UHGV virus genome: UHGV-0293664 | DNA: 64,000 bases | Origin: a virus | Strand: one strand, 5' to 3' | Shown: piece by piece, positions 53,192 to 62,074 of the stretch | Layout: the number at the start of each line of letters is the position of its first letter | Position numbering within the stretch: position 1 is the stretch's first letter | Notes under the pieces: generated by a model | Seen by the model: the letters and a program-made list of their open reading frames with translations, nothing else | Told to the model about the DNA's origin: nothing | Databases searched by the model: none | Made by a program: the position numbers and the translations under genes

Positions 53192-53354
53192 GTACTCGAT
53201 CTGTTTTTCGTTTCAAAGATTGAATTTTCTGAAAATTTTTCTCGATAAATTTCTCAGTACTCGATCTGTTTTTCGTTTTCTGAATCGGATTTTCTGGAAA
53301 TCGTTCCGGCTCTCGACCTGAAATTTTTGGGGACGAAATCGATTTTTCGTTTTC
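53192..53354. repeat. Iteron-like direct repeats, three copies
   Basis: Repeat unit TCGATYTKTTTTTCGTTTTC at 53192-53214, 53257-53280 and 53334-53354 in AT-rich non-coding DNA. Confidence 0.7.
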
Positions 53355-53481
53355 AGAAATGGATTTTTAAAATTTCTATATGGGAATATTTTATGGGATA
53401 CTGTTTTATAGGAAATTGTTACGGAGGGTAATTAGCGTGCTAATTAAATTTATGAAATGCGAGGAGTTCTCATTTAGAATT

Positions 53482-54796: not shown

Positions 54797-54844
54797 AGAC
54801 ACAAAAGGCGGGAATATTTCCCGCCAACACAAAGGAAAAAGATC

Positions 54845-55249
54845 ATGAATAAGAACGTACGCCGCATCATGAACGAGTTGGCAAACGATGAAAAAATTAT
54901 TGACATGCATTTGATCAACATTTGCCGCCGTTGTGTAACATATAACAACCGCGCCGCAAAAGCGCGTGAGATGAACGCAAAAGGTACCTTAAAGCCATTC
55001 CAGGTGGTGGTAAAGGCCATTAAAGATGTAACTAATACGGCAAACCAGGTACAGGGGAACACCAACGAGAGTACCAATATTGATCCGTCTTACGTAATGA
55101 AACGGATCCGGACTTGCAAGAATAAAGAGCAGGTGTATAACGTCATAGATTGGCTGGACTCCCTGGGTGATGTGGTTTACAATAGGTTTTCTGCAGCTAT
55201 CGAGATCCAGCTTGACAGATTAGACGGGAAAGTACTAAAAACTTATTGA
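54845..55249 (+). CDS. Hypothetical protein
   Basis: 134 aa; AAGGAAAAAG RBS. Confidence 0.55.
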   Translation: MNKNVRRIMNELANDEKIIDMHLINICRRCVTYNNRAAKAREMNAKGTLKPFQVVVKAIKDVTNTANQVQGNTNESTNIDPSYVMKRIRTCKNKEQVYNVIDWLDSLGDVVYNRFSAAIEIQLDRLDGKVLKTY

Positions 55250-55252
55250 GTT

Positions 55253-55297
55253 TATTTTTAGATGGCCTTGACTTCAGGGCCATCAATAAAGTAAACT
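55253..55297 (+). promoter_or_regulatory. Promoter with -35 inside palindromic operator, copy 1
   Basis: GATGGCC-TTGACT-N-GGCCATC then TAAACT; near-identical copies at 55875 and 59620. Confidence 0.6.
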
Positions 55298-55329
55298 AAC
55301 CACAATTGAGCGGAAAAGGAGGCTTAAAG

Positions 55330-55449
55330 ATGAGCACTACACGCCAGCACACAAAGGTAACTATTATCGTTTGCATCATTGGTTACATCCTGGCGCAAAT
55401 GTTGATGAGTAGCGCCAACAGTTTTGCAAAATTTTTCTTAAATTTTTAA
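55330..55449 (+). CDS. Small hydrophobic peptide
   Basis: 39 aa ORF below track cutoff; AAAGGAGG RBS; one predicted transmembrane helix. Confidence 0.4.
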   Translation: MSTTRQHTKVTIIVCIIGYILAQMLMSSANSFAKFFLNF

Positions 55450-55478
55450 TTGACAAGCTAACCCAAATCGGTATACTT
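55450..55478 (+). promoter_or_regulatory. sigma70-like promoter
   Basis: TTGACA, 16-17-nt spacer, TATACT; followed by GGGAAAACTTCCC leader palindrome. Confidence 0.55.
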
Positions 55479-55528
55479 AAACACGTAAACGGGAAAACTT
55501 CCCAAAACACACAAAAGGAGAAAACACC

Positions 55529-55870
55529 ATGACTACTATGACCGCCGAAGAAAAAGCCCTGCAGATCGCCGCTCTGAAAAAACAGATCGCAGACCTTGAG
55601 AATAAGATCGATAACTTTGAAATCGACGAGGACAAGTACGACGAAAACTATGATGAATGGCTAGACGAGGTTTATGGCGAAATTATGATCGGAAACATTT
55701 CTTTTCTTCCGTCGCGTATCCTCAAGGAGTTAGATCCTATCGCTTACCGCTGCGGATTTAGCGACTACATCGACAGCCTGGATATTGAGGACGATGAAGA
55801 GTACCAAGAATTGCAGACAGAGATTGAAGAAGTGAAAGAAGAGCTTTCAAAGCTGGAAGAAAACGAGTAA
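55529..55870 (+). CDS. Strongly acidic coiled-coil protein, candidate DNA mimic
   Basis: 113 aa; runs of Asp/Glu (IDEDKYDENYDEWLDE, DIEDDEEYQELQTEIEE). Confidence 0.55.
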   Translation: MTTMTAEEKALQIAALKKQIADLENKIDNFEIDEDKYDENYDEWLDEVYGEIMIGNISFLPSRILKELDPIAYRCGFSDYIDSLDIEDDEEYQELQTEIEEVKEELSKLEENE

Positions 55871-55874
55871 AATT

Positions 55875-55919
55875 TATTTTTAGATGGCCTTGACTCCAGG
55901 GCCATCAATAAAGTAAACT
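55875..55919 (+). promoter_or_regulatory. Promoter with -35 inside palindromic operator, copy 2
   Basis: Near-identical to 55253-55297. Confidence 0.6.
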
Positions 55920-55960
55920 TTATACTGTTAACACTGAACTACTGCAAAGGAGTTAAAACC

Positions 55961-56206
55961 ATGGCAGCACTAATCACCAAGTATTATGCCCCTACTAACA
56001 CCAAAAGCGCCCGTATCATGGTAAAAGGCTTCGGACGTAAAAAGGTTTACACCTGGGATTATGCCTTAGATACGGAAGACAACTACACCAACGCGATGAC
56101 CGATTTTATTAATGAGCTGAACACGCGGATCTTGACAAATTATAAAATTACCGATATTGCCTATATAGGGGAAGGCGGGATCTGTTTTGTCGGTATCGTC
56201 AAATAA
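55961..56206 (+). CDS. Small hypothetical protein
   Basis: 81 aa; AAGGAG RBS. Confidence 0.5.
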   Translation: MAALITKYYAPTNTKSARIMVKGFGRKKVYTWDYALDTEDNYTNAMTDFINELNTRILTNYKITDIAYIGEGGICFVGIVK

Positions 56207-56281
56207 ACTATTTTTTCGGTGGTCCTGGCTGCAGGGCCATCTATAAAGATAATTTATTAACACCGTGAAAGGAGAAAGTAC

Positions 56282-56635
56282 ATGATCAGCGGGGCTAGTT
56301 TTATTATTGGCGCTATTGCTACGGCTTTAATTGTAAACAAGATCCAATCTAAAAACGAAAAAGATAGCAACGCGCTCACAGAATACCCATTTTGGGTATT
56401 CAACGACAACGAAGACTACATAATCAAGTACAAGAATGAGAAGGGCGACCAGGTAACACCGCGACCGATCCCGGCTTACAAAATGCAAGAAACACTATAC
56501 CGCCTAAAGGCTGGAGGCGCAAAAATCGTAGACTTTTGGGGATATGATTGCAAGGATCAGGAGGTTATAAAACGGCGTATCCGGGCGATTCAGGCAAATA
56601 TCGAGATCAGTAAGGGGGGAAGTTATGAAAATTAA
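56282..56635 (+). CDS. Small membrane-anchored protein
   Basis: 117 aa; N-terminal hydrophobic helix; AAAGGAGAAAG RBS. Confidence 0.5.
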   Translation: MISGASFIIGAIATALIVNKIQSKNEKDSNALTEYPFWVFNDNEDYIIKYKNEKGDQVTPRPIPAYKMQETLYRLKAGGAKIVDFWGYDCKDQEVIKRRIRAIQANIEISKGGSYEN

Positions 56636-56822
56636 TTTCGAAAAAATTGTAAAGCGCCCCCACGATTCCGAAGAGCTGCCGGAACGCCGCCAGCGCAACA
56701 ATAAACTGAATAAACCGAAAAGATTTGGGAAGATCTGGCGGAATCATTATGATCGTAAACTGCCTGGCCTACTCTTGGAACGTGAACGACAGGCGGAACG
56801 ATACCGCCACAAAGGCAAATAA
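56625..56822 (+). CDS. Small basic protein
   Basis: 65 aa; Arg/Lys-rich; overlaps upstream gene by 11 nt. Confidence 0.45.
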   Translation: MKINFEKIVKRPHDSEELPERRQRNNKLNKPKRFGKIWRNHYDRKLPGLLLERERQAERYRHKGK

Positions 56823-56828
56823 CAACCA

Positions 56829-56858
56829 ACGCCCCGCCATTGTGCGGGGCTTTTTATT
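56829..56858 (+). terminator. Rho-independent terminator
   Basis: CCCCGC...GCGGGG hairpin then TTTTTATTT. Confidence 0.75.
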
Positions 56859-57002
56859 TCTATCCTACGAATAGCGCCCCTGGTTGGTCCCACAAACGCC
56901 ACAAAAGCCCCTACCTATGCAATCCCCTTTCTTAGTCTGAAAACATCGCCCAGGGCCGTTTTATGGTGTTAAAAATAGCATTGACAGTGATTTTATTTAA
57001 AG

Positions 57003-57031
57003 CTTGACACCTTGGAATAGCCCAGATATAC
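57003..57031 (+). promoter_or_regulatory. sigma70-like promoter
   Basis: TTGACA, 17-nt spacer, TATACT. Confidence 0.6.
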
Positions 57032-57067
57032 TAACCACATCAAAGCAAGAAGGAAGGAGTAAACGCC

Positions 57068-57328
57068 ATGCGTAAATTAAAAAATTTTGATAAAGTCGAT
57101 ATTGTCCTGAATAATTTTTACTACTGCAATAATAAAGCCGTTTGGTGGCGTGATAGTTCCACCGATAAAGTTAAAGCGCGCTTTCTCCAGGGGCACTGGC
57201 AAGGCCGCCCAGTGATTAAGATCCTGGGGCAATCGGTAGCGTTTAAAAATTGCCGCCGTGTTGATGACGTTGAAGAGATTCTAAACATTTTACGCCACAA
57301 TAATTTAAAAAATAGTGTTGACAAGTAA
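57068..57328 (+). CDS. Small hypothetical protein
   Basis: 86 aa; AGGAAGGAG RBS. Confidence 0.5.
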   Translation: MRKLKNFDKVDIVLNNFYYCNNKAVWWRDSSTDKVKARFLQGHWQGRPVIKILGQSVAFKNCRRVDDVEEILNILRHNNLKNSVDK

Positions 57329-57346
57329 ATCTTGATAAGTATACTT
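57318..57346 (+). promoter_or_regulatory. sigma70-like promoter
   Basis: TTGACA, 17-nt spacer, ATACTT; followed by GGCGGGAAAACTTCCCGCC leader palindrome. Confidence 0.55.
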
Positions 57347-57402
57347 AAACACACAGGCGGGAAAACTTCCCGCCACTAACAAAGAAAATAGGAGAAAATA
57401 TC

Positions 57403-58026
57403 ATGACCACCGTTAACATTACCGCAGGTTACAATTTATCTTTCGACGTGCTGACCGACGAACAAAAAGAAAAAGCTATTGAAATGGTCCGCGAAAGAGA
57501 AGAACACAGCGGAGAGGATTTTTTCGCAGAAAGTGTAATTGAATATTATAAAGAACAAGTTTTTCCAGAGTACGGCCTTGAAGATACCGAAGTACATTGG
57601 TCCGGATTTTGGTGTCAAGGCGATGGCGCGTCAATTAGTGCTGAAAATGTAGACTTAGAAAAATTCTTGCGTAAAGTAAAGGCCCTGACCAAGTTCCGAT
57701 CAATTCGTCACTTGTTCGGCACAATGCACGATGGCGAGTTATCAGCCAGTATTGAACGCGACAAGTACAGCCATTACAGCCATGAAAACACTGTAAACGG
57801 ATACATTGATACCACCTGGATAAATCTGACCGCCAAACAAGAAAACAAAGTGGAAGACCTGGAAGAGCTGATCACCGAGACGGCACGGGAGCTATCCCGT
57901 AAGGTTTACGTAGACCTGGAGGAGGCCTATCTAGAACAGTTCACTACCGAAAACCTGATCGATCTTATTAAGGCTAATGATTGGCGGTTTGATGTAGATG
58001 AACATGGCGAGATGACTTTTTCATAA
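57403..58026 (+). CDS. Acidic protein, candidate anti-restriction or DNA-mimic protein
   Basis: 207 aa; Asp/Glu-rich throughout; no confident family assignment. Confidence 0.55.
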   Translation: MTTVNITAGYNLSFDVLTDEQKEKAIEMVREREEHSGEDFFAESVIEYYKEQVFPEYGLEDTEVHWSGFWCQGDGASISAENVDLEKFLRKVKALTKFRSIRHLFGTMHDGELSASIERDKYSHYSHENTVNGYIDTTWINLTAKQENKVEDLEELITETARELSRKVYVDLEEAYLEQFTTENLIDLIKANDWRFDVDEHGEMTFS

Positions 58027-58034
58027 ATAAAGTG

Positions 58035-58062
58035 TTGCAATAACCTAAAAACCTGCTATATT
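58035..58062 (+). promoter_or_regulatory. sigma70-like promoter
   Basis: TTGCAA, 16-nt spacer, TATATT; followed by GGGGCAAGACGTTTGCCCC hairpin. Confidence 0.45.
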
Positions 58063-58115
58063 AAAACTCAAGGGGCAAGACGTTTGCCCCCACACAAAAC
58101 AAAGAGGAAAACATC

Positions 58116-58496
58116 ATGAAAAACACTACTAAAGCTATTGACACCGTTATGTTTAACCTGGTTACCTTTCGCGAGGATATGAAAGATCTTCCGCGTGAAA
58201 CAGTGTGCGACCATATCGAAAACTATCGCAAACTAATCAAAAAGTTGCCTTTAAAACGTGATCAGTATGCGGCTAACGCCATGCTTAATGCCATGATCAA
58301 AAAGATGATCCAGTGTGATTTAACTCTGGCCTATGATTATGCAGGTGGTCGTTTTGCAGTATACAATCAGCCCGTGCCTGGTATGAGCACCACAGAAGAA
58401 TTGCACGCGTTAAATCTAAAACAAGACGTGTGGGATAGCATGCCTCGCGTGGTGGTATGGGTAGAAAGCGGGAAGATTTACGGCGATAATTTTTAA
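58116..58496 (+). CDS. Hypothetical protein
   Basis: 126 aa; AAGAGGAAAAC RBS. Confidence 0.55.
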   Translation: MKNTTKAIDTVMFNLVTFREDMKDLPRETVCDHIENYRKLIKKLPLKRDQYAANAMLNAMIKKMIQCDLTLAYDYAGGRFAVYNQPVPGMSTTEELHALNLKQDVWDSMPRVVVWVESGKIYGDNF

Positions 58497-58504
58497 TCAG
58501 ATAA

Positions 58505-58538
58505 CAGGCGGCGGCATATTTGCCGCCGCCTTATTGTT
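58505..58538 (+). terminator. Rho-independent terminator
   Basis: GGCGGCGGCA-TATT-TGCCGCCGCC hairpin then T-rich tract. Confidence 0.75.
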
Positions 58539-58566
58539 AAACAGAACTGCAAAAGAGGTACATAGA

Positions 58567-58938
58567 ATGGAATTTATTATTTTGGCTGTATTGGTTGCCT
58601 TGTTTAACGCCTGGATTGCTGGCAAGATGGGCAGATCCGCCTTTTTATGGTTTATTATATCTATTTTCCTGGGGGTGGTTGCAACTATTGTATTGGTTAT
58701 CCTTGCAATTGTTGACAAGGGGAATAATAGAAAGGGTAAAGTATTTTCAGACCTGTACGACGCTCAAACGTTTGTCAACGCATATTATAGTGATCTTCCA
58801 GTCTCCCTACGCTGCAGCCTGGCACAACAAGTTTTCGATGAGGCTAAAACCAGAGATCAAGCCCATGAGATATGTTTAACTGAGGCGGATCGCCTATTTG
58901 AGAGGAATAGAAAATATGTGGGCCAACCGTTTAAATAA
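58567..58938 (+). CDS. Membrane protein with two transmembrane helices
   Basis: 123 aa from ATG 58567 with AGAGG RBS; two long hydrophobic segments. Confidence 0.5.
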   Translation: MEFIILAVLVALFNAWIAGKMGRSAFLWFIISIFLGVVATIVLVILAIVDKGNNRKGKVFSDLYDAQTFVNAYYSDLPVSLRCSLAQQVFDEAKTRDQAHEICLTEADRLFERNRKYVGQPFK

Positions 58939-59161
58939 TGCCACGTTAATTAATCCCTTTAGTGAAGATTTGAAGCCAGCCGCCTGGCGTGATGGATTCA
59001 ATACCGAACGCTTTATTTTCAGGCCTGATCTTGAGGAATTTTATAACAATGGATCGAACAACGACAGAGATAATTTTTCTTGTGATGTGCGTGGTGATGG
59101 TACTCCTGGGGGCCATTGTAAACCACGTCACTACTACCAGGGGGAAAGGGGGAGACGATGA
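58916..59161 (+). CDS. Small hypothetical protein
   Basis: 81 aa from ATG 58916; overlaps upstream gene end. Confidence 0.4.
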   Translation: MWANRLNNATLINPFSEDLKPAAWRDGFNTERFIFRPDLEEFYNNGSNNDRDNFSCDVRGDGTPGGHCKPRHYYQGERGRR

Positions 59162-59277
59162 CACCCAAGGATAAGCCACGCACCAATAAGGCGCGCCGTG
59201 TTATGGTGTGGCTGGAGATCATCGCCCTTGAAATATTGCTAGGCGTAGGGATGTACTTTATCGCTGTAAGTAACTAA
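59158..59277 (+). CDS. Small hydrophobic peptide
   Basis: 39 aa ORF below track cutoff; GGGGGAGA RBS; ATGA overlap; one hydrophobic helix. Confidence 0.35.
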   Translation: MTPKDKPRTNKARRVMVWLEIIALEILLGVGMYFIAVSN

Positions 59278-59279
59278 GA

Positions 59280-59315
59280 ACGGCCCCCCGATCATGGGGG
59301 CCTATCTTTAAAAAA
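59280..59315 (+). terminator. Rho-independent terminator
   Basis: GGCCCCC...GGGGGCC hairpin, then A-run and T-run. Confidence 0.65.
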
Positions 59316-59332
59316 ATTTTTCTTCCGGGGTG

Positions 59333-59361
59333 TTGCAATCCGGTCCGGAATGTGGATAATA
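59333..59361 (+). promoter_or_regulatory. sigma70-like promoter
   Basis: TTGCAA, 17-nt spacer, ATAATA; TGTGGATAA overlaps the -10. Confidence 0.45.
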
Positions 59362-59415
59362 ACAATCAACGGGGAGCTAATCCCACCACCACAAAAACCA
59401 GAAAGGAGAAACAAA

Positions 59416-59616
59416 ATGAGCAACAATATCCGCGTTATTAACTTCAAAAAAGAAGAAAAAATTGCCGTGCTGATTGACGGTCAAGAAATCTTCAAGGGCG
59501 ACTATGAAGATCATCAAACGGCGATTAGTATCACCCGCGTGATTGGTTACCATAATTTCTACCCCCAAGGTGCTGAGGCAGCAGTTAAACGAATCAAAGA
59601 GATTGTAGGCCTGTAA
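59416..59616 (+). CDS. Small hypothetical protein
   Basis: 66 aa from ATG 59416 with AAAGGAGA RBS. Confidence 0.5.
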   Translation: MSNNIRVINFKKEEKIAVLIDGQEIFKGDYEDHQTAISITRVIGYHNFYPQGAEAAVKRIKEIVGL

Positions 59617-59619
59617 AAT

Positions 59620-59666
59620 TTATTTTTAGATGGCCTTGACTCCGGGGGCCATCAATAAAGTAAATT
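59620..59666 (+). promoter_or_regulatory. Promoter with -35 inside palindromic operator, copy 3
   Basis: GATGGCC-TTGACT-N-GGCCATC then TAAATT. Confidence 0.55.
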
Positions 59667-59708
59667 TAAACCCTGTTAAAATAATCAGTGCAAAAAGGAG
59701 TAATGATC

Positions 59709-60008
59709 ATGTTTATACCCGCCAATAATCTTTATTTCTTTGATGGTCAAATCGTAGACGGCGTGGAAGTTGAGATCACCGGGTGCCCTGGTGGTCAGGC
59801 TATGACTTTTCGGAATAATGCTTTTGATGATTCTCATATCGTTATGAGAATGGAAGTTACGAAGCTGGACGACAAGAAAACACTTATTGACTATTCTGTG
59901 AAAGATCATCCAGACTACCGCATGATCCATGGCGATTTGTGCAGTGTTGACCGTGACAAGGTGGGCGGCATTGTGATCGCTATTGTGAACGATGTTTTCT
60001 CAAACTAA
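59709..60008 (+). CDS. Small hypothetical protein
   Basis: 99 aa from ATG 59709, 8 nt after AAAGGAG; ATG 59703 also possible. Confidence 0.5.
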   Translation: MFIPANNLYFFDGQIVDGVEVEITGCPGGQAMTFRNNAFDDSHIVMRMEVTKLDDKKTLIDYSVKDHPDYRMIHGDLCSVDRDKVGGIVIAIVNDVFSN

Positions 60009-60025
60009 TTTCAGCAGGTGATTTT

Positions 60026-60376
60026 ATGAAAGTCAAACTATATTACCTTAATGAGCTTAACCCCCTTGCCCAGGTCCGCGCCCTGGCTAATACCTTGATT
60101 TGTGAGAAATCTGCATATTGTGTTGAGCTTAACGCCATGCGTGAACGTCTCAAAGGGGGTTACTTCGACATCCATGCTGCAATCAACGGCCTGAATATGG
60201 AATTTATACGCTTACGTAACAGCCGCCGGAATCTGGCAAGAATGGAACAAGATCCGGCCCACCTTCGTAAGCTGGTTATTGAAAATCATCTGATGTTTAA
60301 TGCCGAGGGTGATTATTACCATTTTCACCGCAAACGCTGGTACCGTGGCGGCAATACAGGCAAGAATGCAAAATAA
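60026..60376 (+). CDS. Hypothetical protein
   Basis: 116 aa; weak RBS. Confidence 0.45.
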   Translation: MKVKLYYLNELNPLAQVRALANTLICEKSAYCVELNAMRERLKGGYFDIHAAINGLNMEFIRLRNSRRNLARMEQDPAHLRKLVIENHLMFNAEGDYYHFHRKRWYRGGNTGKNAK

Positions 60377-60411
60377 GGCCCCAGGCAGGGCCTGCAGCGA
60401 TATAATCACAT

Positions 60412-60445
60412 AAAGGCTATGCGGTTGCATGGCCTTTATTATTTT
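60412..60445 (+). terminator. Rho-independent terminator
   Basis: AAAGGCTATGC...GCATGGCCTTT stem then ATTATTTT. Confidence 0.6.
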
Positions 60446-60493
60446 AGCGTTACAGCGACCCCCAAGGCGCTTAAAAAAATTTTAAAGAAGTAC

Positions 60494-60522
60494 TTGCATC
60501 AAGCCCTACAATATGGATAATA
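60494..60522 (+). promoter_or_regulatory. sigma70-like promoter
   Basis: TTGCAT, 17-nt spacer, ATAATA. Confidence 0.45.
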
Positions 60523-60577
60523 GGACGTGTCGGGGGGCGGCCCCCAATCATTAACCGGATAGATAGGAGTTAAAACC

Positions 60578-60862
60578 ATGGCTATTGTTACCGCTGGCGA
60601 TGTAGTAGAAATGGAAGCAAAATACTTAAAAGCGGGTATGCATATCCTACGCAACGATCTTGAACTGGTCCTGACAATGGTTGACTATAACCCAGGGCAA
60701 GATTATCCAAGTGTTGACTACTTTTTTAGGTATGTTGATGAAGAATTAAAAGAGGATGAGGCTTATCAGGGCGAATTCTGTAATTTCTTTTGCTCTGATG
60801 AGGTTGTAAAAGTTATCTATCAACCTGGCGTACCTTTCCCGTTGCACGCTATCAATAAATAA
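60578..60862 (+). CDS. Small acidic protein
   Basis: 94 aa; TAGGAG RBS. Confidence 0.5.
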   Translation: MAIVTAGDVVEMEAKYLKAGMHILRNDLELVLTMVDYNPGQDYPSVDYFFRYVDEELKEDEAYQGEFCNFFCSDEVVKVIYQPGVPFPLHAINK

Positions 60863-60917
60863 ACCTGGCGGGGCCGAAAAGGCCCCCAATTATGAAAATA
60901 AAGAGAGGTAAATCATC

Positions 60918-61151
60918 ATGATGGAACAAATTAAACGCGCTGAGGCTATTAATGGCAATGTGATCTACTTTGTCAGCAAAAACGAAAAAGGCGTACCATA
61001 TGCGGCGGTAATAGTACAGCCTGACGGTGATTATTGGTTTACTGTGTACGGCGCTTATTCTTTCGGGCGTCCGGTGCATGATAGAATTTTGAAAGTAGCG
61101 AACCCCACCGGGAAGAATATCACGGCAGAAAAATTTTTTGAAAATAATTGA
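60918..61151 (+). CDS. Small hypothetical protein
   Basis: 77 aa; AGAGAGG RBS. Confidence 0.5.
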   Translation: MMEQIKRAEAINGNVIYFVSKNEKGVPYAAVIVQPDGDYWFTVYGAYSFGRPVHDRILKVANPTGKNITAEKFFENN

Positions 61152-61176
61152 CAACGTTTTAAATTAGTTTAAGATG
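61148..61176 (+). promoter_or_regulatory. sigma70-like promoter
   Basis: TTGACA then TAAGAT; shares TAAGATGTATCACGTAGGG with promoter at 61997. Confidence 0.5.
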
Positions 61177-61232
61177 TATCACGTAGGGGAGACAAGCGCC
61201 CTATTAAACGCAACAGGAAGAGGATAAACACC

Positions 61233-61472
61233 ATGAAAAGCAATAAAGGTTATAACGGTTACAAAAACAAAACTCATTGGAATGTAAGCCTTTGGATTAA
61301 TAACGATGAGTCATTGTACCGGTTGGCCCAAGGCTTTATCAACGCTAATGCTAATCGTAATGATGCGGCGCGGGATATGATGCTTTTTCTGGAGCTAACC
61401 GGACAAGATAAGACCCCGGACGGCTTCAAGTACAGCACTACGGCGATCCGTGCCGCGATGGTTGGAATGTGA
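61233..61472 (+). CDS. Small hypothetical protein
   Basis: 79 aa; GGAAGAGGA RBS. Confidence 0.5.
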   Translation: MKSNKGYNGYKNKTHWNVSLWINNDESLYRLAQGFINANANRNDAARDMMLFLELTGQDKTPDGFKYSTTAIRAAMVGM

Positions 61473-61481
61473 TAAAATAGC

Positions 61482-61509
61482 TTGACACTGTTTTTTATTC
61501 TGGTATAGT
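61482..61509 (+). promoter_or_regulatory. sigma70-like promoter
   Basis: TTGACA, 16-nt spacer, TATAGT. Confidence 0.55.
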
Positions 61510-61651
61510 TTATCACATAGGACGGCACGACAGAGTACTACGGATTCGAGGGTGTCCGGTGCGGTGAACTTGCTCGCGACCTTAAGGAAGATCCAGACCT
61601 GGAAGATCTGCCCATCACCGTAAACGGGAAAACTTACGTAAACCGTTAACC

Positions 61652-61786
61652 ATGAGAAAGATAATCATCACCTTGGGGATTGTGGCGGGATCGCTGGCGC
61701 TCTTTCCCCTTATGGTTAGATATGTGCTGATCAGTATTGTCCTGATAGTTAGTGATTTATTGGAAACGGTTGGCACCTTGTTTTAA
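61652..61786 (+). CDS. Small hydrophobic peptide
   Basis: 44 aa ORF below track cutoff; almost entirely hydrophobic; weak RBS. Confidence 0.3.
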   Translation: MRKIIITLGIVAGSLALFPLMVRYVLISIVLIVSDLLETVGTLF

Positions 61787-61996: not shown

Positions 61997-62024
61997 TTGC
62001 ACAATGTATCTGATAGTGTAAGAT
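61997..62024 (+). promoter_or_regulatory. sigma70-like promoter
   Basis: TTGCAC then TAAGAT; paralogous to promoter at 61148. Confidence 0.45.
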
Positions 62025-62074
62025 GTATCACGTAGGGCGGCAATAGTGCCGCTCACAACTGGAAGGAAAACACC

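Follow-up and report, generated by a model that had tools for sequence, protein, structure and literature searches.

Do reading frames of about forty codons that encode a hydrophobic helix represent genes and, if they do, what might their products do to the envelope of the host? The question is raised by three open reading frames (ORFs) of UHGV virus genome UHGV-0293664, here analysed as a stretch of 64,000 nucleotides (the window), which an initial annotation made from the sequence had described as single-helix hydrophobic peptides and as candidates for superinfection exclusion, membrane depolarisation or toxin-like functions:

55330..55449, + strand: ORF1, 39 amino acids (aa), MSTTRQHTKVTIIVCIIGYILAQMLMSSANSFAKFFLNF; predicted N-in single transmembrane (TM) helix, residues 10-26
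59158..59277, + strand: ORF2, 39 aa, MTPKDKPRTNKARRVMVWLEIIALEILLGVGMYFIAVSN; tail-anchored peptide
61652..61786, + strand: ORF3, 44 aa, MRKIIITLGIVAGSLALFPLMVRYVLISIVLIVSDLLETVGTLF; very hydrophobic

All three were found at the positions first given for them, on the + strand and with ATG starts. Because they are conserved, preserve their frame and are under purifying selection in their own frame alone, the comparative evidence identifies ORF1-3 as real protein-coding genes and not chance ORFs; because each is cleanly absent from some relatives, the same comparison marks them as individually dispensable accessory genes. Our overall reading, to which we assign a rough probability of 0.55, is that they are genuine accessory genes for inner-membrane peptides that would act by intramembrane contacts in an early remodelling of the envelope. 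That the genes are real and translated is very probable for ORF1 and ORF2, and probable for ORF3 in the relatives.

Conservation and selection of the three frames

The window derives from an rV5-like (Vequintavirus) Escherichia coli phage. When its segment from 54 to 62.5 kb was compared by megablast and blastn with 50,697 phage records, 286-314 of these matched, the best being Escherichia phages slur16, FFH2 and rV5 together with the Vequintavirus isolates of the BASEL collection (92-94% identity over at least 95% of the query). In rV5 the three ORFs have orthologues of the same length, in the same position and with the same neighbours (70-92% identity), namely ORF193/gp188 for ORF1 (phrog_16391), ORF181/gp176 for ORF2 (phrog_13629) and ORF170/gp165 for ORF3 (phrog_16005). 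The PHROG matches are full-length (E = 1.1e-31, 8.7e-31 and 9.9e-27; profile positions 1-39, 1-39 and 1-44, respectively), and all three PHROGs are of 'unknown function'. Nothing essential differs between these genes of rV5 and those of the window, in which the gene that precedes ORF3 (its partner) is 5'-truncated and ORF173 is deleted.

The initial annotation had placed the peptides below the cutoff of its ORF track, which is not the same as unannotated, all three being annotated in rV5 and many relatives. The rV5 authors list ORF193, ORF181, ORF170 and ORF173 as 'membrane protein, 1 TMD' (transmembrane domain) and ORF183 as '1-2 TMD' (Kropinski et al., 2013, Table S3), and phage A51.2 carries ORF1 and ORF2 as 'putative membrane protein', while many records leave one or another of the ORFs unannotated. 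ORF1-3 are therefore already published as hypothetical membrane proteins, which are typical of large lytic phages. Modestly new are the proof of selection, a hidden TM ORF, a di-glutamate helix in ORF2, the truncation of the ORF3 partner and cassettes that resemble the promoter-early stem-loop (PeSL) elements of T4-type phages.

Since hydrophobic ORFs as short as these are no rarity in six-frame translations, their conservation was tested. In a tblastn search of all phage records, full-length ORF1 was present in 113 and ORF2 in 119 records, and ORF3 in 164, among which are phAPEC8-like phages with 54-75% identity. The loci compared were 12 of Vequintavirus, four of the phAPEC8 type and one more divergent rV5-like contig (L028); an IMG/VR scan anchored on a 207-aa neighbour yielded two close loci only. 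At every compared locus that carries them the ORFs are intact, and the frame is kept through 3-nt indels in ORF2 and ORF3 and through a divergent N-terminus in ORF1. Selection was measured for each frame as the Nei-Gojobori ratio of nonsynonymous to synonymous differences (pN/pS) and evaluated by a column-shuffle test, in which the alignment columns are permuted so that phylogeny and composition are kept and the codon structure is destroyed. In their own frames ORF1, ORF2 and ORF3 have a pN/pS of 0.24, 0.20 and 0.46 (P = 0.0005, 0.0005 and 0.002), whereas the two alternative frames give 0.6-3.6 (for ORF1, 0.81 and 3.6) and neighbouring accepted genes 0.04-0.16. A scan of both strands from 54 to 63.9 kb for ATG ORFs of 25-65 aa yielded only eight that contain a stretch of comparable hydrophobicity, and of these only ORF1-3 and one ORF in a hidden frame are conserved and constrained; the antisense hydrophobic ORFs of this block are without constraint (e.g. 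pN/pS 1.62, P = 0.97). Conservation in relatives, the lack of which had been named at the outset among the grounds for refuting the proposal, thus speaks for its structural part, in that the ORFs are both kept and constrained. For the suggested functions (superinfection exclusion, depolarisation, toxin-like action), the computed results tell neither in favour nor against.

It is highly improbable that the ORFs are untranslated and persist through overlapping regulatory DNA, such as the promoter cassette, an UP element, the ribosome-binding site (RBS) of a neighbour or terminators. Overlaps of this kind do occur, as the 3' end of ORF1 is an UP element that abuts the -35 element of the next promoter, the 3' end of the hidden ORF overlaps the Shine-Dalgarno (SD) sequence and start of ORF2, and ORF3 is without an SD sequence. 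Yet regulatory DNA would not show a 3-nt periodicity, and the purifying selection is frame-specific, with substitutions concentrated at third positions, conservative hydrophobic replacements, indels that stay in frame and other frames that are rich in stops.

The presence of the genes is patchy. ORF1 is missing from an IMG/VR locus (L003) and from L028, and ORF3 from MiataMamis (L013), JLBYU08 (L014) and L028, where the partner's stop codon is directly followed by the next gene. All that L028 has of ORF2 is a stub of 13 codons (MMSKGKPSHQKRS*), and the hidden ORF is intact there.

Signals and membrane character of the small ORFs

Each of the three ORFs has a segment of 17-19 residues whose Kyte-Doolittle mean exceeds 2 and whose Hessa-scale energies add up to 0 or less, as well as a positive-inside charge bias, and the TMHMM and Phobius runs of the rV5 authors call one TMD for all three (Kropinski et al., 2013). 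The products of ORF1-3 and of the hidden ORF are likely to be membrane peptides, and they would insert into the host inner membrane with the basic N-terminus in the cytoplasm. The description as hydrophobic helices consequently holds for each ORF, but 'single helix' is uncertain for ORF3, since Arg23 (R23) separates two hydrophobic stretches. ORF1-3 are small proteins with at least one TM domain, as the criterion for holins has it, and none has the charged, hydrophilic C-terminal tail of the holin type: ORF2 ends two residues past the TM segment, and ORF1 and ORF3 have hydrophobic C-termini whose net charges are +1 and 0, respectively. Charged C-terminal parts are found only in the hidden ORF and in a 123-aa protein of the same neighbourhood.

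The initial annotation had assigned an RBS to the first two ORFs, and a strong SD sequence was indeed found for both. In the case of ORF1 the surrounding signals are as follows:

55238..55297, + strand: hairpin-plus-promoter cassette (family D1), first of four copies, immediately upstream of ORF1
55315..55323, + strand: SD sequence of ORF1, AAAGGAGGC, 6 nt before the ATG; duplex -11.6 kcal/mol; conserved in relatives
55450..55477, + strand: strong sigma-70 promoter of the next gene, TTGACA-16-TATACT; P192 in the rV5 annotation

The final codons of ORF1 double as the A/T-rich UP element of the promoter at 55450..55477. The 60-nt cassette is present in four copies (55238-55297, 55860-55919, 56195-56254 and 59606-59665) and is conserved in relatives. 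In copy 1 the -35 element TTGACT (55268-55273) is located in the loop of the hairpin and the -10 element TAAACT (55292-55297) in its 3' arm, with a spacing of 18 nt and a score of 9/12 in the promoter scan. The RNA is predicted to form an extended hairpin of -23.6 kcal/mol (z = -7; -20 to -24 kcal/mol across the four copies). On neither strand is the hairpin followed by a U-tract, and a T-run precedes it instead, so that it is not a canonical terminator and a role in termination is doubtful. At locus L003, ORF1 and the next gene (113 aa) are deleted exactly between copies 1 and 2. We propose that genes of this block are gained and lost as modules between the repeated cassettes, which would explain the patchy gene distribution and is a modestly new point.

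Other repeated structures accompany the promoters of this region. A GC hairpin, (C)GGGAA-N3-4-TTCCC(G), lies ~10 nt 3' of strong early promoters (55491-55503, 57356-57374 and 54807-54825), that is, at the predicted 5' ends of transcripts, and may be an mRNA-stabilising 5' stem-loop. Promoter and 5' untranslated region (5'-UTR) together form a repeated unit of 66 nt, with copies at 55450 and 57318 that are 74% identical. A 16-nt motif by ORF1 and ORF3, GTAAACGGGAAAACTT, was considered as a shared regulatory element and rejected, as at 55485 it belongs to the 5'-UTR hairpin, and at 61620 it codes for part of the truncated partner (...ITVNGKTYVNR*).

ORF2 is the final cistron of a string of overlapping ORFs, in which a 123-aa protein is followed by gp177, the hidden TM ORF and ORF2:

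58567..58938, + strand: 123-aa protein with two TM helices (rV5 ORF183/gp178, phrog_13090), first gene of the overlapping four-ORF string
58916..59161, + strand: 81-aa ORF (rV5 ORF182/gp177, phrog_12060), N-terminal half constrained
59049..59174, + strand: hidden 41-aa single-TM ORF, MDRTTTEIIFLVMCVVMVLLGAIVNHVTTTRGKGGDDDTQG, in the +1 frame of gp177, in its 3' half
59145..59153, + strand: SD sequence of ORF2, AAAGGGGGA, 4 nt before the ATG; duplex -10.7 kcal/mol
59282..59312 (or to 59302), + strand: intrinsic terminator ending the ORF2 string, -18 kcal/mol, followed by a T-rich tract

The ATG of ORF2 overlaps the stop codon of gp177 (ATGA), and the SD region GGGGGAGACGATG is invariant in relatives. 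Four Lys/Arg are found among the 15 residues that precede the TM segment. Across 18 variants of ORF2, residues 17-36 (VWLEIIALEILLGVGMYFIA), including E20, E25 and G29-x-G31, are invariant or nearly so, and the basic tail at the N-terminus and the two final residues differ between variants; the TM part has a pN/pS of 0.06 (P <= 0.0005), as against 0.20 for the whole ORF. A generic anchor would tolerate exchanges between Leu, Ile and Val, as ORF3 does, so that the invariance of the core suggests sequence-specific packing and points to a specific contact with a partner helix or within an oligomer.

Acidic residues in an apolar helix with a small-residue GxG face recall the pore-forming TisB and DinQ. 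The three ORFs could accordingly be read as host-shutoff or toxin-like peptides that oligomerise, dissipate the proton-motive force and arrest the host, like TisB, DinQ and Hok, which we consider unlikely. Size and hydrophobicity fit such a role, and a further point in its favour is that early phage products have been argued to be toxic in BASEL phages, including sensitivity phenotypes of Vequintavirus (PNAS 2026). By contrast, Pfam, NCBIfam (E <= 0.1-1) and PADLOC scans of all peptides returned nothing meaningful and no Imm/Sp, holin or type I toxin, and no Rfam family, antisense and small RNA families included (E <= 1, 52-64 kb), overlaps the ORFs. Strong SD sequences and constitutive-type promoters without evident control are unlike type I toxin loci, an early depolarisation would hurt the energy-dependent replication of the phage itself, and the genes are individually dispensable. 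As type I toxins proper, ORF1-3 were rejected on the family and RNA tests, with the limit that a novel antisense RNA could still exist.

The invariant TM core of ORF2, which suggests a specific intramembrane partner, would also suit a function in counter-defence, whereby the peptides would bind membrane-embedded effectors or sensors of host defences and silence them, e.g. the TM effectors that belong to CBASS, Pycsar, retron or Zorya-type systems. A patchy, cassette-mediated presence in an accessory block is typical of such genes, and the accessory-gene logic of Silas et al. agrees with this pattern. We nevertheless regard counter-defence as quite unlikely, given that no anti-defence homology was found, the only PADLOC match being a weak PycTM-like one in the TM region of the 123-aa protein (E = 0.009), and that Vequintavirinae are unusually sensitive to restriction-modification in the BASEL data, with no effective protection seen.

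ORF3 differs in its signals, having no SD sequence (+0.6), and is preceded in the window by two features:

61482..61509, + strand: sigma-70 promoter TTGACA-16-TATAGT with extended -10, now preceding the remnant and ORF3
61521..61649, + strand: 5'-truncated remnant of the partner, last 42 codons, no start codon; profile positions 53-94 of 94

The other frames of ORF3 contain 2-10 stops. Wherever a relative has ORF3, the ORF3 start is placed 2 nt past the stop codon of the partner or overlaps it (ATGA), as is typical of coupled genes for a secreted protein and a membrane peptide. The partner, rV5 ORF171/gp166 (phrog_9845), has 94 aa and a signal-peptide-like N-terminus (MKKMIAVVALVVGINAPTLA/NE), which is present in the full-length partners of loci L022-L026, and it has no match in Pfam or the PDB. 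We propose that ORF3 would normally be made by translational coupling to this secreted partner. Compared with phage FFH2, ~660 nt are missing from the window (61470-61650), so that a 34-aa TM gene (rV5 ORF173, 34-46 aa), a gene of 71 aa and the partner's first 52 codons are gone. ORF3 itself is identical to that of phage HeinrichReichert, which retains the full partner.

All three ORFs are set in a + strand block that holds many short genes. A promoter scan of 53-64 kb found six sigma-70 sites in agreement with TTGACA-N16/17-TATAAT in all but one of the 12 positions, in addition to several intrinsic terminators, and the rV5 authors assigned the block to transcription unit '10-1-238-164' and annotated sigma-70 promoters in it. 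The late motif has no exact match in the block; sites with one mismatch are located at 59674, 61470 and 63308, none of them directly upstream of ORF1 or ORF2. Since the promoters are of the host sigma-70 type, ORF1-3 and the hidden ORF would probably be expressed from them early in infection.

Further features of the block stand apart from the small ORFs. Between 52900 and 53800 no convincing gene was found, and this region, annotated 'repeat_region' in some relatives, holds a ~50-nt repeat three times (53192, 53257 and 53331), a second repeat pair (53485/53621) and a long hairpin with a 16-bp stem (53323-53360); it may serve as an origin or in regulation. At 61165-61188 and 62014-62037 there is a direct repeat of 24 nt, TAGT(T/G)TAAGATGTATCACGTAGGG, in copies that are 96% identical, both intergenic and adjoining promoter-like sites. 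About 20 GenBank records (MG0656xx) that are named 'Campylobacter phage', with Campylobacter jejuni as host, match 92-94% of the block query at 92-93% identity and are probably mislabelled or contaminant rV5-like sequences.

The hidden frame in gp177 and the larger neighbours

The hidden ORF has a weak SD sequence (GAGGA, ~10-12 nt upstream) and a very strong hydrophobic stretch (Hessa sum -4.8). Its ATG and stop codon are intact in 14 of 14 genomes examined, the divergent L028 included, and the annotated frame of gp177 has a premature stop in five of 12 relatives. Over the shared bases the hidden frame has a pN/pS of 0.36 (P = 0.014) versus 1.07 (59048-59137, P = 0.89) in the annotated frame, and the N-terminal half of gp177 is constrained in its own frame (pN/pS 0.33, P = 0.004). 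In the tblastn search the hidden ORF was present in 119 records, a number equal to that of ORF2. It matches no PHROG, and when ten sequences were looked up, eight of them hidden-frame variants, one hidden-frame variant was on record, from phage Gotham. Taken together, the frame comparison makes it probable that this is a fourth small membrane-protein gene, and its being a real translated gene is somewhat favoured.

A programmed frameshift that would fuse the N-terminal part of gp177 to the hidden frame was considered as well and is judged unlikely, since a slippery motif is absent and the hidden ORF has a conserved ATG of its own. Two other candidates failed: a longer hidden form of 60 aa, starting at 58992, is broken in three of 13 relatives and its constraint is not significant, and gp177 and the hidden ORF do not qualify as a spanin pair, as gp177 has no TM segment, the hidden ORF no lipobox, and the spanins are located elsewhere. 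A tentative reading of the whole string, which we hold to be less likely than not, is that the gp177 locus is dual-coding, with the hidden peptide as the selected product there, kept deeper than ORF2, and that the hidden ORF, the 123-aa protein and ORF2 would constitute an intramembrane module that recognises a membrane target of the host by sequence-specific contacts between helices, analogous to an E5-like inhibitor.

Larger membrane proteins had been proposed at 58567..58938 and 56282..56635. Two TM helices are clear in the former, the 123-aa protein, but the latter shows only a borderline N-terminal hydrophobic segment:

56282..56635, + strand: 117-aa protein (rV5 ORF190, phrog_12734), weakly hydrophobic N-terminal anchor and conserved alpha/beta domain

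The 117-aa gene overlaps the start of a T7 gp1.1-like gene (56625..56822). In the AlphaFold2 (AF2) model of its product the predicted local distance difference test (pLDDT) score is below 50 at residues 1-30, and the domain has no informative fold neighbour; the N-terminal hydrophobic segment is retained in homologues of 61-63% identity, and the protein was not called a membrane protein by the rV5 authors (Kropinski et al., 2013). The counterpart of the 123-aa protein in L028 has 94 aa (L028 6001-6285), with one different TM helix and a shared C-terminal helical domain of 65 aa, and such unrelated anchors on a common domain look like an anchor swap. Protein searches with ORF3, the 123-aa and the 117-aa protein returned six to seven clusters each, nearly all of them rV5-like, and an exhaustive phmmer search of the 123-aa protein against 1.84 billion representatives gave seven hits and no informative family.

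The BASEL genomes label the 123-aa protein 'putative holin', and rV5-like phages are without a classic lysis cassette and an established holin. Together with the charged C-terminus of the hidden ORF this might suggest that the small peptides are components of lysis timing, as holins, antiholins or pinholin-like proteins. The BASEL label, however, derives only from a scan for TM helices and conflicts with the assignments of the rV5 authors, whose holin candidate is gp129, whose lysin is gp89 and who place the spanins beside the terminase. ORF1-3 lack a charged tail, stand behind host-type promoters among small genes of unknown function and are each absent from viable relatives, unlike a lysis-essential gene, and no lysis-enzyme family was found among the neighbours scanned (PHROG, Pfam). 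A role in lysis timing is thus very unlikely, and ORF1-3 were rejected as holins on C-terminal charge, context and dispensability.

Proposed role and known systems

Under the preferred reading of ORF1-3 as accessory genes for early envelope remodelling, each peptide of 39-44 residues would insert into the host inner membrane, ORF1 being expressed from its own cassette promoter with a strong SD sequence and ORF2 as the last cistron of its string. There, each would make sequence-specific helix-helix contacts with a membrane protein of host or phage or with itself, ORF2 being the clearest case, and the aim would most plausibly be to exclude superinfecting phages or to neutralise a host function located in the membrane. 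A promoter-dense accessory block is the place where functions in exclusion or host takeover would be expected. The more specific assignment to superinfection exclusion or envelope takeover is speculative and, in our estimate, rather doubtful.

Several points weigh against this interpretation. On the Hessa scale ORF1-3 reach only marginal values in their hydrophobic segments (0 to -0.6), and the two glutamates of ORF2 would disfavour monomeric insertion. A promoter UP element is contained in the final third of ORF1, so that the conservation of ORF1 is partly regulatory, although codons 1-29 alone, which exclude this part, have a pN/pS of 0.12. Expression of ORF3 in the window is doubtful, as it has neither an SD sequence nor a translated upstream partner. 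The early timing is read from the promoter consensus alone, and the rV5 authors report such promoters scattered over the whole rV5 genome. Dispensability also fits a minor role, or none, under most conditions. Lastly, the searches gave no homologue of known function, the families being confined to rV5- and phAPEC8-like phages, and the literature on rV5-like phages yielded no data on translation, localisation or phenotype for these genes.

At face value the locus is ordinary, as small early membrane proteins are numerous in large lytic phages, and ORF1-3 have stood in GenBank since the rV5 genome. The comparison provides clear evidence that ORFs of 39-44 aa, which many annotation pipelines skip, are real selected genes, and indicates that a further TM peptide can hide in an overlapping frame and be missed in most of the annotated genomes that carry it. 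The di-glutamate helix of ORF2 is a tractable candidate for studying how a phage uses a bare transmembrane helix on the host envelope. Since rV5-like phages are common candidates for therapy and biocontrol, superinfection exclusion, if true, would bear on the design of phage cocktails.

In its cassettes, the locus resembles T4-type phages, in which PeSL cassettes mediate modular shuffling: in both, a repeated stem-loop with an early promoter stands between small accessory genes, and indels are bounded by its copies (PMC2839356; PMC4122927). The cassette found here belongs to a different phage family, has a different sequence and carries the -35 element in the loop of the hairpin. The hidden ORF is reminiscent of embedded or overlapping gene pairs such as lambda Rz/Rz1, since it would add, within another gene and in the +1 frame, the code for a small envelope protein; it differs from that pair in that it has no lipobox and gp177 no TM segment, the rV5 spanins being located beside the terminase.

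As to function, the small envelope proteins Imm and Sp of T4 are made early from host-type promoters, and Imm sits in the membrane, while Sp acts in the periplasm. In the window, host-type promoters and predicted TM helices are present, and ORF3 with its secreted partner presents a similar layout of a membrane peptide and an exported protein; there is no sequence similarity (no Pfam hit to Imm_superinfect, PF14373), and Imm and Sp are about twice as long. The type I toxins Hok, TisB, DinQ, Ldr, Ibs and ShoB share with ORF1-3 the nature of hydrophobic inner-membrane peptides of 20-50 aa, whereas the ORFs have no match to these families and no detected antisense RNA family and are ordinary cistrons with strong SD sequences in phage operons. 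A further likeness, for ORF2, is to the E5 oncoprotein of bovine papillomavirus (44 aa) and to small bacterial TM regulators such as AcrZ and MgrB, very short single-helix proteins whose activity consists of sequence-specific intramembrane contacts that involve polar or acidic residues of the helix. Although this likeness is one of mechanism alone, without homology or a known target, the invariant core of ORF2, with E20, E25 and the GxG motif, fits their pattern.

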